A stretch of 64,000 nt of DNA from Escherichia coli 042 (lineage in GTDB: Bacteria; Pseudomonadota; Gammaproteobacteria; Enterobacterales; Enterobacteriaceae). The stretch lies in assembly GCF_000027125.1 (NCBI RefSeq), contig NC_017626.1. One strand, written 5' to 3'. The notes under the pieces are model-generated. The model made no database searches, was not told the origin of the DNA, and saw nothing but the letters and a program-made list of their open reading frames with translations. Below, piece after piece: positions 58,364 through 62,343 of the stretch; positions within the stretch are counted from its first letter, which is position 1; every line of letters begins with the position of its first letter. The position numbers and the translations under genes were made by a program.

Positions 58364-58416
58364 ATATACTATAGGGGGGTATGCTATATGTCAATGCATA
58401 CCCCCCTATAGTATAT
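58364..58416. promoter_or_regulatory. perfect 21-bp inverted repeat in the frmRAB promoter, candidate FrmR operator
   Basis: atatactataggggggtatgc - 11 bp spacer - gcatacccccctatagtatat, 25 to 77 bp upstream of the frmR start. Confidence 0.7.
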
Positions 58417-58454
58417 AACACTGGAGAATAAAATTTATCCGGTGAATGTGGTCG

Positions 58455-58502
58455 GAAAACAAAGAGGAAAGGGGGGGGCTAATCGGCAGGGAAGGCCCCC
58501 CC
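58455..58502 (-). terminator. rho-independent terminator of yaiO
   Basis: on the reverse strand a G7 / C8 stem (ccggggggg...cccccccc) is followed by tttcctctttgtttt; 23 bp downstream of the yaiO stop. Confidence 0.6.
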
Positions 58503-58524: not shown

Positions 58525-59298
58525 TCAGAATTTCCAGGTCAGATGGGCTGCAAGTTGCAGACCGTTATAATCATCGGTTGGGGTGTCGTACCACACTTTA
58601 CCTGCCGTCAGCCCGAGATTAAGTTGCTCAGTCAGCGGTTGAATACGTTGCAGACTGACGCTCTTCATGCTGCCGTAGCGTGTTTCTGGCGTCCAGTCAT
58701 AGGTGTAAGCACCTGTTCCGCGGCTTAGCCATAGTTGCGTATAACCAGTGCCGCGCGGGTCATTCAGACGCACGGAAATCATATTGCTGTAACTACCACC
58801 TGCATCGCTGGAGTCATAATGGGTATAGCGATAGCTGGTGATCACCGGGCCAGTATAGAGGGATACGCCGCCTTGCCAGGCATCGACTTCGACATCATCG
58901 TAATATTTAGTGTAGCGATAACCGGTCGTGAAAAGCGTTTTTGGCAACAGTGCCAGGTTAATATCCTGACGAAAATCCTGGCGGGCAAAGACCGGCGTAT
59001 TATCCGCAAAGGCAATACCCGTTCGGGTTGTCAGCCAGTTATTCCATTTATACCAGACCGCACCCTGACCGCGAGTGGCATTGAAATGTTCAGTTTCATA
59101 ATCACGACGCCCCTGGGAAAGATTAAAAAGCAGCGTTGCGTTTTCAACTTTCGCCACCAGTTCAGCATACGCTAAATTACGGTTGCCATGATCGCCAGAA
59201 TAATCGGTAAAATCGTAGCCCGCGGTAATGGAAGTTAACCCGGCATAAGCGGGCAATGTGCTAAAAATTGCTGCCGCTAATAACGTCCGTTTTATCAT
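58525..59298 (-). CDS. yaiO: outer-membrane beta-barrel protein
   Basis: 257-aa ORF with signal peptide MIKRTLLAAAIFSTLPAYA and C-terminal ...HLTWKF. Confidence 0.88.
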   Translation of the reverse strand: MIKRTLLAAAIFSTLPAYAGLTSITAGYDFTDYSGDHGNRNLAYAELVAKVENATLLFNLSQGRRDYETEHFNATRGQGAVWYKWNNWLTTRTGIAFADNTPVFARQDFRQDINLALLPKTLFTTGYRYTKYYDDVEVDAWQGGVSLYTGPVITSYRYTHYDSSDAGGSYSNMISVRLNDPRGTGYTQLWLSRGTGAYTYDWTPETRYGSMKSVSLQRIQPLTEQLNLGLTAGKVWYDTPTDDYNGLQLAAHLTWKF

Positions 59299-59299
59299 T

Positions 59300-60010
59300 T
59301 TAATCTCCTGTACGGATAAGTTCTTGTCGGAGTGAATAAGTTCCGGTAGGTAAATTACGTTCTACAATCACGCGCGGGCCAAGTTGCGTGTTCGGGGAAA
59401 TAATTCGCCCAGGCAAAATAATAACTTGTACACCAAGGCGTGAACGCTGCCCGATATAACAACCTAATTTATCGCATTCGGTAGCGATAATTCCCTCTGG
59501 AGTTCGAACAGATACGGGCTGTTGATCCAGACGATGATTACTGGTACGTACTTGTGCGCCCAAATATGTCTGGTTTGCAACTACCGAGTCGGCGATAAAG
59601 CATTGCGGACCAATCGTTGCTTCCGCTTCAATAACCGCATTTTTAATTTCGGTGGCAAAACCAATTTTTACGCCATTGCTGATTATTGTGCCAGGACGAA
59701 TAAACGCATAATTACCTATCAGGCAGTTTGCGCCAATCACTACCGGACCCTGAATAACGGCACCGTGACAAATACGGGTATTCGCGCCGATAACAACTTC
59801 ACCTGCAGTTTCATCAATAATTACCTGGTCTGCAATCTGAATATTTTTCTCTTTAACATTAAGCTTCAGAAAGTTTTTCAGTTCCTGTGACAGAAGGTTG
59901 GGAATAAGCGGTTGACGCTTCCACCAGTGCGGAATAGCGGGTGGGTTTGTCGCGCTGAGGTTCGCGTCCAGTAAAAAAGGCAATAAGTCCATAAATAATC
60001 CAGATGGCAT
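59300..60010 (-). CDS. yaiX: hexapeptide-repeat (LbH) acyltransferase, uninterrupted; start codon uncertain
   Basis: 236-aa ORF with repeated [LIV]G-x-x-x-x-I hexapeptide motifs; the N-terminal ~50 codons overlap the yaiP 3' end in another frame; stop lies 1 bp from the yaiO start. Confidence 0.65.
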   Translation of the reverse strand: MPSGLFMDLLPFLLDANLSATNPPAIPHWWKRQPLIPNLLSQELKNFLKLNVKEKNIQIADQVIIDETAGEVVIGANTRICHGAVIQGPVVIGANCLIGNYAFIRPGTIISNGVKIGFATEIKNAVIEAEATIGPQCFIADSVVANQTYLGAQVRTSNHRLDQQPVSVRTPEGIIATECDKLGCYIGQRSRLGVQVIILPGRIISPNTQLGPRVIVERNLPTGTYSLRQELIRTGD

Positions 60011-61055
60011 AAGCTAATAATACATACACAACGGAAAGCGGTGCTAAAGGCACCAACAACCAGCAACGATGAAACCAGGCGCTAAAAGCACCAATAACAC
60101 AAACTACGCCGACCCAGATAAGCGGAAACATTGCCAACACCACACCATGCGGCCCGGTGGTAATGAATTCATTAAACCAGGTAGTGAGATAAATCCCAAC
60201 GCCATAAAGCACAACCAACAGCATAGGAAATATACTGAAGATACCGAAGCGGCTAAATAAAAGTCTTTTATGCAGGCGCATACAGACCGCGTAGCCCACA
60301 ATCCAACGCCGCCAGCGACGCCACTCCTCACGCGGGCTGTTGCATTCCTGTGGGTATACGATGCAGCGATTCGCCTGCCGAATACGGTAGCCGTTTGCCA
60401 CCAATGTCCAGGTGAGATCAAGGTCTTCGACTTTAGTACGATCCGAGAAACCGAACTTACGCAATACATCAGTACGGAACATCCCGCAGGCACCGCTGAT
60501 AATAAACGGTGCGCCGCCCACGAGCTGCTGTAGCGTGCGCTTCATAACAATCATCGGCAACTTTACGGTCGCGCGGATGTGTGGTAACAGACCCGCGCCT
60601 TTCAACGCAGTAGAGGGAATGCCGCCTACGGCATCGGCACCGCGCTCAATTTCTGCCAGCATATAGCCCATTCCGTCTTGATCGGGCGGAACATAGGTGT
60701 CGGCATCACTTAAAAAAACCTGGTCGCAGGTGGCGTAATTGAGGCCATTCATCAGCGCACCACCTTTACCGGTATTTTTTTGCGTGACGGCAACAAAGCG
60801 GTCGCCCCATTTGCGTTTGACTTCCTCCATGACCGATTCGGTATTGTCCGTGGAGCCGTCGTTTACGCAAATTACCCGGCAAAAATAAGGGTTACGCAGC
60901 AGATTATCCAGTGACTGTGCCAGACACGGGCCTTCGTTATAAGCAGGTATAATGGCGTCAATACAGCCTTTCTTTTGACTGGGTTTACGTTTTAGCGTAC
61001 TTAAAAACCATAGCAACATTGCTATGGACATACAGATAAATATCCAGGTTTTCAT
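59859..61055 (-). CDS. yaiP: family-2 glycosyltransferase with C-terminal transmembrane region
   Basis: 398-aa ORF; GT-A features (IIPAYNE, DGSTDNT, DAD, VEDLDLTW, ...REEWRRW) followed by several hydrophobic helices. Confidence 0.85.
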   Translation of the reverse strand: MKTWIFICMSIAMLLWFLSTLKRKPSQKKGCIDAIIPAYNEGPCLAQSLDNLLRNPYFCRVICVNDGSTDNTESVMEEVKRKWGDRFVAVTQKNTGKGGALMNGLNYATCDQVFLSDADTYVPPDQDGMGYMLAEIERGADAVGGIPSTALKGAGLLPHIRATVKLPMIVMKRTLQQLVGGAPFIISGACGMFRTDVLRKFGFSDRTKVEDLDLTWTLVANGYRIRQANRCIVYPQECNSPREEWRRWRRWIVGYAVCMRLHKRLLFSRFGIFSIFPMLLVVLYGVGIYLTTWFNEFITTGPHGVVLAMFPLIWVGVVCVIGAFSAWFHRCWLLVPLAPLSVVYVLLAYAIWIIYGLIAFFTGREPQRDKPTRYSALVEASTAYSQPSVTGTEKLSEA

Positions 61056-61064
61056 GCAATTTGC

Positions 61065-61736
61065 TCAAAGAATCATTTTATGAATTACAAAGCCTTCACC
61101 CAGATCGCTATTGACCTGTTGCCCGCGAAATTGTGCAACTGCACGCAGGCGATCCGGGCGCATATAATCACGATGGCCCTGGCTCTTATGCTGTTTTAAT
61201 GCAGCCAGTTTAATGGTGAAATATTCTTCTTCCACGGATTCAAAAACCTGTGGCATAAATGAAAGCCAGGTACTTGGCGTTTCATAGCCGAGAATTTGCG
61301 GAATAGCGCGACAGGCAACCATTGAGGCTTGATAGACTGCAAGATGATCCTGATGGCGGTCAGCATCATGCATGGTGTATACACGAATGATTTCTACATC
61401 AGACGGAATTTGTTTTTTAAGGACATCTTCCAGAGCGGAAATCATATCATTAAGTTGTAAATGAGTACGGGTGTCAGCAAAATTAAAATGAATAGTTTGT
61501 TGACACCCCAAAATGTTTAATGCTTCGAGTGATTCTTGATGTCGATTAATTATTTCACTCACGCCGGAATTACCCGATGTCATCACTACCGCTGCAATAT
61601 AGAACCCTTTTTTTGCAAGACGAGCGAGCGACGCGCCACAGCCCAATTCTATATCGTCAGGATGTGCGCCAATAGCAAGGATACCCTTTCTTTTATTTGC
61701 CGAAGAAAGGATGGCTGAATCTAAAACCTTATCCAC
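61065..61736 (-). CDS. yaiS: PIG-L/LmbE-family N-acetylglucosaminyl deacetylase
   Basis: 223-aa ORF with GTG start; conserved AHPDDIELG motif near the N-terminus; 9 bp upstream of yaiP. Confidence 0.8.
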   Translation of the reverse strand: MDKVLDSAILSSANKRKGILAIGAHPDDIELGCGASLARLAKKGFYIAAVVMTSGNSGVSEIINRHQESLEALNILGCQQTIHFNFADTRTHLQLNDMISALEDVLKKQIPSDVEIIRVYTMHDADRHQDHLAVYQASMVACRAIPQILGYETPSTWLSFMPQVFESVEEEYFTIKLAALKQHKSQGHRDYMRPDRLRAVAQFRGQQVNSDLGEGFVIHKMIL

Positions 61737-62343
61737 TTAATGACACTCCATTTTATTTATTATACTACAAGCACAACGATGCCCACAGAGACGTAATCTC
61801 TGGCGCAGACAGATGCTAATATTTAAGTGTTAAAAATTGCTGATAGCTGAAAAATAAGGGGCTTTCAGGTACGTGGATACGACTGCGTAATCTTTTATGT
61901 AGTTCATATGTTAAGTGTTTGTGTGTTTGGTTTGTATAGTTATTTTGTTTTATATATTGTATTTAGATGTGATTTAGTTTGTCAATTAATTACATATTAA
62001 AAATATGTTCTATGCACGAATATGGATTATATACATTATGTGAATATATTATGTGGTTGATTGAGAATGATACAGTTATATATGCAATGTGAATATAATG
62101 GTTTCATTATATGTATTGCTGTTAATAAAATAAAAGACATTATAATCTGCTTGTTTATGCATTAATAAAATGAAGTGCAGTAACTTACTGAATTGTCAGA
62201 GTGGGTGTAATTGCATATTTAATCTTTCCTTTGCCGCTTTTTTGCTAAGAATAAAATCATCTGTGCGATAACGACTAATTCTTTTAATGAATGTTTTTAT
62301 TCCTGAATACTGCTCCTATAACAAGACAGGGGAGCAGACAATC

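Follow-up and report, generated by a model that had tools for sequence, protein, structure and literature searches.

A mobile four-gene operon of Escherichia coli 042, yaiS-yaiP-yaiX-yaiO, as a candidate pathway for a GlcNAc-derived surface glycan

Our subject is the yaiS-yaiP-yaiX-yaiO cluster, which lies between frmR and tauA in a 64,000-nucleotide stretch of the Escherichia coli 042 genome (NC_017626.1, hereafter the window, whose coordinates we use throughout). We find that the cluster is a self-contained, horizontally mobile operon, and we lean, with slightly better than even confidence, toward reading it as a compact synthase-type pathway for a glycan derived from N-acetylglucosamine (GlcNAc), with editing of the N-acyl group in the cytoplasm and a minimal outer-membrane channel. 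An original prediction made from the window had described four tightly packed genes, read on the minus strand, for a PIG-L deacetylase, a GT2 glycosyltransferase, a hexapeptide-repeat acyltransferase and an outer-membrane barrel. The open reading frame (ORF) listing bears out the positions and the spacing, and all four domain assignments were upheld by profile hidden Markov model searches (Pfam, NCBIfam). The genes are as follows.

58525-59298, minus strand: yaiO, 257 amino acids
59300-59992, minus strand: yaiX, 230 amino acids from a conserved ATG at 59992 (the longest ORF spans 59300-60010)
59859-61055, minus strand: yaiP, 398 amino acids
61065-61736, minus strand: yaiS, 223 amino acids, GTG start

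Only 9 nt separate yaiS from yaiP, yaiX overlaps the 3' end of yaiP, and yaiX and yaiO are 1 nt apart. Genes that abut or overlap in this way suggest translational coupling.

That the four genes act as one functional unit, as had been proposed, is supported by their conservation. We traced relatives of YaiO and YaiP into genomes and metagenomes, and wherever the flanking DNA was long enough the order S-P-X-O was identical. Such loci were found in Escherichia, Citrobacter, Superficieibacter, four Stenotrophomonas, Lysobacter, Acinetobacter, Pseudomonas viridiflava and alphaproteobacterial metagenome-assembled genomes, and the order holds even where YaiO identity has dropped to 24-30%. Across orders YaiP retains 52-69% identity, whereas YaiO falls as low as 24-41%. 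All four genes give a ratio of nonsynonymous to synonymous substitution rates (dN/dS) of 0.04-0.23, both within Escherichia and against Citrobacter, counting only comparisons in which synonymous divergence was not saturated. The cassette also moves. Citrobacter braakii ATCC 51113 holds two divergent copies, some E. coli carry a second one in a transposase-flanked island together with a PAPS-reductase/ParB pair (as on the chromosome of E. coli 10034292-3), one E. coli copy sits on an IncFIB plasmid (pMTY9754_IncFIB-I), and a Salmonella cassette adjoins a PapB-family regulator, ccdAB and an integrase. The conserved order, the mobile copies and the purifying selection together argue that these are working genes which travel and are selected as a unit. 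A role in anti-phage defence was considered and rejected, as PADLOC returned no matches for the cluster.

The glycosyltransferase YaiP matches the GT2 family (PF00535) with an E-value of 1e-27. A single hydrophobic helix at its N-terminus is followed by a cytoplasmic GT-A domain and by three to four hydrophobic helices at the C-terminus; C-terminal membrane helices had been anticipated in the original prediction. The DxD, ED and RW-type motifs picked out there are genuine: DAD (residues 117-119), ED (210-211) and RWRRW (247-251) are invariant in 44 orthologues, among which D66 and SGxCGxF (187-193) are also invariant or nearly so. YaiP thus shows the D, DxD, ED and Q/RxxRW pattern by which the processive GT2 synthases of synthase-dependent exopolysaccharide systems are recognised. 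The motifs align residue for residue with those of E. coli PgaC, to which the glycosyltransferase domain is 29% identical over 241 residues. The best NCBIfam match is PgaC_IcaA (TIGR03937; residues 22-286), with a score of 101.9 bits that lies below the cutoff of 422.3 and leaves YaiP outside the PgaC/IcaA equivalog. The NodC profile (TIGR04242) reaches 29 bits against a cutoff of 550, over residues 24-125 only, and YaiP falls outside that family as well. Judged by these profile scores, YaiP is a relative of PgaC and not a member of its family.

The structural comparisons point in the same direction as the motifs. With the AlphaFold2 model of YaiP (pLDDT 81.7) as query, the best Foldseek matches are the hyaluronan synthases XlHAS1 and CvHAS (TMq 0.63-0.66, E 3e-15), followed by BcsA at 0.53, while GtrB and ArnC, lipid-carrier enzymes that are not processive, reach just 0.33-0.37. 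These matches, like the PgaC_IcaA profile, agree with the idea of a membrane-integrated synthase, and YaiP may have its own transmembrane channel. Its neighbours in the AlphaFold database (AFDB) are GT2 proteins resembling synthases of poly-beta-1,6-GlcNAc (PNAG), many of them fused to NodB/CE4 deacetylase domains. Past the last membrane helix the orthologues share an invariant tail, G-R-E-P-x-R-D-K-P-T-R-Y, at residues 364-374 (about 59934-59966). It carries an RxxxR pattern reminiscent of motifs that bind cyclic di-GMP (c-di-GMP), and model confidence is low past residue 376. We offer the R-E-P-x-R-D-K-P-T-R segment as a speculative candidate for a c-di-GMP receptor. No Pfam match to PilZ, PgaD, PelD, Alg44 or MshEN was found in the four proteins, and a site of the PgaCD type has no domain signature.

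The two candidate cytoplasmic proteins, YaiS and YaiX, look like enzymes that act on amino sugars. YaiS matches PIG-L (PF02585, E 9e-23) and shows the features of family CE14, with AHPDDIELG at residues 24-32 and HQDH at about 138, so that it is most simply read as a zinc-dependent de-N-acetylase of the PIG-L/LmbE (CE14) type. It scores below the cutoffs of the BshB1, MshB and Mca equivalogs (BshB1 aligns to residues 19-221 with 74 bits, cutoff 182), and the solved structures nearest to it are those of archaeal diacetylchitobiose deacetylases (E 1e-10, residues 4-218), with BshB-type enzymes next by sequence. YaiX has Hexapep and left-handed beta-helix (LbH) matches in Pfam and is covered by the C-terminal half of TIGR03992, the archaeal GlmU profile (E 6e-37, 127 bits, cutoff 292). 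Pfam finds no nucleotidyltransferase domain in it, which leaves the LbH half only and places it outside the GlmU type. Among solved structures it comes nearest to that of the C-terminal GlcN-1-P/GalN-1-P N-acetyltransferase domain of Sulfolobus ST0452 (E 3e-21), and YaiX would accordingly be classed as a left-handed beta-helix acyl- or acetyltransferase. The PIG-L fold of YaiS begins at residue 20 after an acidic N-terminus, with no signal peptide, and YaiX of non-enteric taxa begins directly at M-W-W. Since neither protein has room for a signal peptide, we infer that both are cytoplasmic. Taken together, the best family match of the GT2 to PgaC_IcaA, the nearness of YaiS to diacetylchitobiose deacetylase and that of YaiX to a GlcN-1-P/GalN-1-P N-acetyltransferase suggest GlcNAc chemistry.

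The start of yaiX deserves some comment. When 18 loci are aligned, a W-W motif (P-x-W-W) conserved across taxa stands out near the N-terminus. In most taxa the start codon stands immediately before W-W, giving a 14-nt overlap with the GT2 gene, whereas in the enteric clade this Met is replaced and there is a conserved upstream start, M-D-L-L-P-F-L-L-D. The start in the window is therefore probably the ATG at 59992, for a protein of 230 residues and an overlap of 134 nt with yaiP. We rejected the CTG start for a 193-residue protein that is given by the NCBI annotation pipeline (PGAP) because it leaves out the conserved W-W motif. The 134-nt stretch at 59859-59992 is read in two frames, one for the C-terminal tail of YaiP and one for the N-terminus of YaiX, and a V-V-E consensus in the YaiP tail is probably a consequence of the YaiX W-W codons (TGG TGG) in the other frame. 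An overexpressed 71-residue fragment of K-12 YaiX has been found to raise drug tolerance and virulence in silkworms, with a weaker ampicillin effect for a 236-residue form, in the one functional study that our searches turned up, which does not consider the operon (PMC13058169).

The fourth protein, YaiO, belongs to an outer-membrane family of its own name. It matches TIGR04390 with 184.3 bits against a cutoff of 32, over profile positions 1-230 of 230, and PF19413 as well, and it has a Sec signal peptide (ending LPAYA/G) and a C-terminal Phe. The AlphaFold2 model (pLDDT 92.5) is a 14-stranded barrel that takes up the whole protein and is most like CymA and OmpG, with some resemblance to FadL and TodX. 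A profile comparison with PgaA gave no detectable homology, and no tetratricopeptide repeat (TPR) was matched by Pfam in any of the four proteins. YaiO is thus not one of the 16-18-stranded porins homologous to PgaA, BcsC, PelB or AlgE. We looked for larger or TPR-fused relatives that would link it to PgaA, BcsC or PelB, but the 118 family matches that HMMER found in 1.84 billion representatives are essentially all stand-alone proteins of about 260 residues; a profile search added nothing. A stand-alone 14-stranded barrel of this kind, modelled as it is, is a plausible glycan channel outside the known class of TPR porins.

From these parts a pathway can be proposed in which the operon would build a GlcNAc-derived glycan, either a polymer or an oligomer, and pass it to the cell surface. 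YaiP, judged by its fold and motifs, would sit in the inner membrane as a processive GT2 and polymerise an N-acetylhexosamine, for which UDP-GlcNAc is the probable donor; like the synthases of hyaluronan, cellulose and PNAG, it would pass the chain through a transmembrane channel of its own. Acting from the cytoplasm, YaiS would strip the N-acetyl group from a GlcNAc unit and YaiX would acylate the free amine, or else O-acetylate. Deacetylation followed by reacylation has precedents in NodB/NodA, in LpxC/LpxD and in teicoplanin tailoring, and by analogy with them YaiS and YaiX may jointly edit the N-acyl substituent of a precursor, a primer or a chain end. A deacetylase and an N-acyltransferase that handle the same acyl group in the same compartment would be futile, which makes an exchange of acyl groups the more economical assumption. 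YaiO, whose fold is modelled, would then provide the passage across the outer membrane.

Several points weigh against this proposal. The identity of the sugar is read only from family resemblance. In the four proteins Pfam detects neither a TPR scaffold nor an enzyme for modification in the periplasm nor a recognisable c-di-GMP receptor, which leaves unexplained how a chain would get across the periplasm. Tailoring in the cytoplasm is awkward for a chain that is being extruded, which favours a precursor, a primer or short oligomers as the substrate. R-x-x-RW motifs and similar folds are also found in lipid glycosyltransferases, and some of the AFDB neighbours of YaiP are labelled monoglucosyldiacylglycerol synthase. 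The likeness of YaiO to FadL and TodX has to be counted here too. A literature search on yaiP, yaiS, yaiO and yaiX found no study of the function, product or phenotype of the cluster.

The points on lipid enzymes lead to the alternative that survives best, which is that the product is a glycolipid. YaiP would add a single GlcNAc to a membrane lipid, for instance undecaprenyl phosphate or diacylglycerol, YaiS would de-N-acetylate it and YaiX would N-acylate it to give an N-acyl-glucosaminyl lipid, which a FadL-like YaiO would place in the outer membrane. YaiP does have weak matches to the ArnC, GtrB-type and Glyco_transf_21 families, the neighbours just mentioned carry the label beta-monoglucosyldiacylglycerol synthase (although these labels are automatic), and a cytoplasmic deacetylase with an acyltransferase fits the logic of lipid A synthesis, where LpxC and LpxD act. 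The whole-chain fold of YaiP is, however, far nearer to the hyaluronan synthases and BcsA than to GtrB and ArnC, its three to four C-terminal helices and G-x-C-G-x-F motif are typical of polymer synthases, and YaiO, at 257 residues a barrel only, is without the N-terminal hatch domain of FadL. We consider a glycolipid unlikely.

A second alternative keeps the GlcNAc chain and makes it short, in the manner of the rhizobial Nod factors, whose core is built by the GT2 enzyme NodC, the deacetylase NodB, the acyltransferase NodA and the LbH O-acetyltransferase NodL. YaiP would make a GlcNAc oligomer, YaiS would deacetylate its non-reducing end, YaiX would re-acylate or O-acetylate it, and the product would leave through YaiO as a signal or a surface decoration. 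YaiP is the size of NodC (398 residues, with one plus three helices), the enzymes nearest to YaiS deacetylate the non-reducing GlcNAc of chitobiose, oligomers that are released would be open to tailoring in the cytoplasm, a 14-stranded pore like CymA or OmpG suits oligosaccharides, and the neighbours of YaiP include fusions to NodB-homology domains. Against these stand the NodC match itself, which is weaker than that to PgaC, and the lack of a NodA homologue or a NodIJ-type ABC exporter in any cassette; chain length, moreover, is not something that the sequence reveals. YaiS is also of class CE14 where NodB is CE4, and YaiX is an LbH protein, unlike NodA, so the likeness to the Nod core is one of small membrane GT2 for GlcNAc chains, cytoplasmic deacetylation and then acylation, with an outer-membrane barrel in place of the exporter. 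We regard this version as doubtful, and somewhat more so than the glycolipid.

It is very improbable that the cluster is a silent, decaying island of unrelated neighbours with no coherent pathway: this would suit the two independent lesions in K-12, the AT-rich control region marked by H-NS, the antisense RNA and small antisense ORF inside the K-12 cluster and the truncated YaiP and YaiO variants in some E. coli, all of which are described below, but the low dN/dS in all four genes, the intact state of 8 of 8 sampled genomes and the identical order across several bacterial orders, with spread on plasmids and islands, speak against it. Least probable of all is uptake and catabolism of chito-oligosaccharides, with YaiO as an import channel like the sugar-uptake channels CymA and OmpG and YaiS as a catabolic chitobiose deacetylase like its nearest relatives, as neither a membrane GT2 synthase nor an acyltransferase has a part to play in catabolism and the conserved cassette holds no inner-membrane transporter, kinase or glycosidase.

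Returning to the synthase-type pathway, we can ask how it compares with systems that are already known. The original prediction drew a parallel to pgaABCD, and this holds loosely, for the GT2 only. Both pgaABCD/icaADBC, which make PNAG, and the yai cassette have a membrane GT2 with the same catalytic motifs and place a de-N-acetylase and an outer-membrane barrel in one operon. The differences lie in nearly every other part: the 29% identity of YaiP to PgaC is accompanied by a score far below the equivalog cutoff, YaiS is apparently a cytoplasmic CE14/PIG-L enzyme whereas PgaB is a periplasmic CE4 lipoprotein, the 14-stranded YaiO has neither TPR nor detectable homology to PgaA, no PgaD-like module was found by Pfam, and the yai cassette has an additional LbH acyltransferase. 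The class I hyaluronan synthases and BcsA give the best structural matches to the whole YaiP model, including its membrane part, and share the D, DxD, ED, Q/RxxRW architecture, but they are only 14-18% identical in sequence and are much larger (about 500-870 residues against 398), and unlike BcsA YaiP has no PilZ domain and no BcsB partner. With no TPR scaffold, homologous porin, periplasmic modifying enzyme or recognisable c-di-GMP receptor, the cassette does not belong to the pga, bcs, alg or pel systems.

Two further systems are close enough in outline to be considered. NfrB bears a domain for binding c-di-GMP at its C-terminus, and the large NfrA contains TPRs. This pair, formerly cryptic in E. 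coli and recognised only recently, is a c-di-GMP-controlled synthase for the glycan receptor of phage N4 (PMC8669469, PMC8669472). It resembles the yai cassette in pairing a GT2 with an outer-membrane protein; neither of the two features just named is found by Pfam in the yai proteins, a distinction that is drawn from the general description of NfrA and NfrB. The xagABCD operon of Xanthomonas is likewise made of four genes centred on a PgaC-like GT2, and is a biofilm exopolysaccharide operon that biofilm formation requires (PMC3609779). Iron-oxidising bacteria have a BcsB-like gene in place of xagA. Two invariant YaiP peptides, scanned against 100,044 species genomes, recovered Stenotrophomonas and Lysobacter but no Xanthomonas, and it appears unlikely that the yai cluster is xagABCD. 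The latter is probably a different system that could still be related, and it is the main uncertainty for novelty.

The synthase-type surface glycans of E. coli are so far cellulose, PNAG and the product of NfrB, and if our reading is true the yai product would be the fourth. A synthase combined with cytoplasmic tailoring enzymes and a minimal porin is undescribed for the known systems. New here are, among other points, the fixed and mobile cassette, the selection on all four of its genes and a nonsense lesion in K-12 yaiS beside the IS2 insertion. A bolder version can be stated, in which a GlcNAc oligomer or polymer has its N-acetyl groups replaced in the cytoplasm by another acyl group, in the manner of Nod factors or lipid A, and leaves the cell with no TPR scaffold, by way of 14-stranded glycan porins that would form a class of their own. 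Synthase-dependent glycan systems would then have a fifth architectural type, which plasmids have carried among enteric, Stenotrophomonas, Acinetobacter and Pseudomonas lineages; as a whole this is improbable. Most E. coli have the cassette, which is also found on IncF-type plasmids and genomic islands and in opportunists such as Stenotrophomonas maltophilia and Acinetobacter. With this distribution, a surface glycan made by it could matter for biofilm formation, as a phage receptor, in immune recognition and in the cross-reactivity of vaccines or antibodies with PNAG. It would be a widespread and selected glycan system that the reference strain cannot make.

The state of the cluster in K-12 is likely the reason that the system has been missed, since the reference carries two inactivating lesions. 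The interruption of yaiX by IS2, which had been mentioned in the original prediction, was seen in a K-12 derivative. The second lesion is a CAG-to-TAG nonsense change in yaiS that truncates the protein at residue 185 and removes its last 38 residues, whereas YaiS orthologues all align through residue 223 and keep the full length. The suggestion that strain 042 is unusual in keeping the pathway did not survive, as intact clusters are the norm across E. coli. The region of the window is 100% identical to that of E. coli strain BEC1-S17-ESBL-09, it is matched in 4970 of 5426 complete E. coli genomes, in 4250 of which at least 80% of it lies in one place (a count that includes copies interrupted by insertion sequences), and all four ORFs are open in each of 8 sampled non-K-12 genomes. 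PGAP labels yaiS of the identical strain, and of most others, a pseudogene with a missing C-terminus. We regard this label as an annotation artefact, because in every sampled genome the 223-residue frame is open and agrees with the orthologues up to the last residue. The sole sampled record that is free of it (STEC308) is also without a coding sequence like ykiC on the antisense strand.

Shortened forms of two of the proteins also occur in E. coli protein clusters (P0250, P0251, P0284 and others). A 319-residue YaiP is found on dozens of contigs (94-97% identical, 62-64% query coverage), and several YaiO forms of 147-210 residues account for hundreds of member sequences. Some lineages of E. 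coli besides K-12 may have lost the pathway, or the truncations could be artefacts of contig ends.

The control regions of the operon lie on either side of the four genes.

61956-61985, minus strand: sigma-70 promoter-like site, TTGACA-18-TACAAT, about 220 nt upstream of yaiS, matching 11 of 12 consensus positions
61737-62286: AT-rich yaiS-tauA intergenic control region, with GC down to 29% in the composition profile
58472-58502, minus strand: probable operon terminator, a GC-rich hairpin with 8 G-C pairs and a U-rich tail, -19.4 kcal/mol

Hexamers identical to those of the promoter-like site were found as a constitutive yaiS promoter in genomic SELEX with RpoD, and the yaiS-tauA spacer is marked HNS in the same work (PMC3946193). 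Transcription would then start from a sigma-70 promoter within an AT-rich spacer marked by H-NS, a setting in which the operon would stay mostly silent when cells are grown in the laboratory. At the other end, yaiO had been credited with its own terminator, and this stands in part. The hairpin begins 22 nt past the yaiO stop and is followed by CUUUCCUCUUUGUUUUC; it is not canonical, and the terminator consensus scan passed it over because its loop is longer than 8 nt. A leader RNA or riboswitch for yaiS was considered and rejected: no Rfam family of either kind matched the upstream region, the weak Rfam matches that did appear are chance microRNA hits on the palindrome of the frmR promoter, and the 5' region folds no better than shuffled sequences.

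The 5' end of the cassette differs from the rest in its history. In the window, yaiS and the yaiS-tauA spacer (61100-62200) form a divergent allele, 70-92% identical to typical E. coli with a synonymous divergence (dS) of 0.46, whereas yaiO, yaiX and yaiP are 95-100% identical with a dS of 0.04-0.06. The second-copy cassettes show the same contrast in their proteins, with YaiS 62% identical against 94-96% for the other three. Recombination thus seems to have a hot spot at the 5' end of the cassette.

Antisense to the 3' end of yaiS there is an open ORF of 39 codons (61080-61199, plus strand) homologous to YkiC, a small K-12 protein that epitope tagging revealed (PMC6001520). Where yaiS is full-length, this ykiC-like ORF lies wholly within the yaiS coding sequence on the opposite strand, while in K-12 ykiC overlaps the 3' end of yaiS and the stretch past its premature stop. 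An antisense RNA also lies within the cluster in K-12. Beyond the terminator, a long perfect palindrome at 58364-58418 (…CTATAGGGGGGTATGC…GCATACCCCCCTATAG…) overlaps the frmR promoter, TTGACA-17-TAGTAT, and is presumably the FrmR operator.

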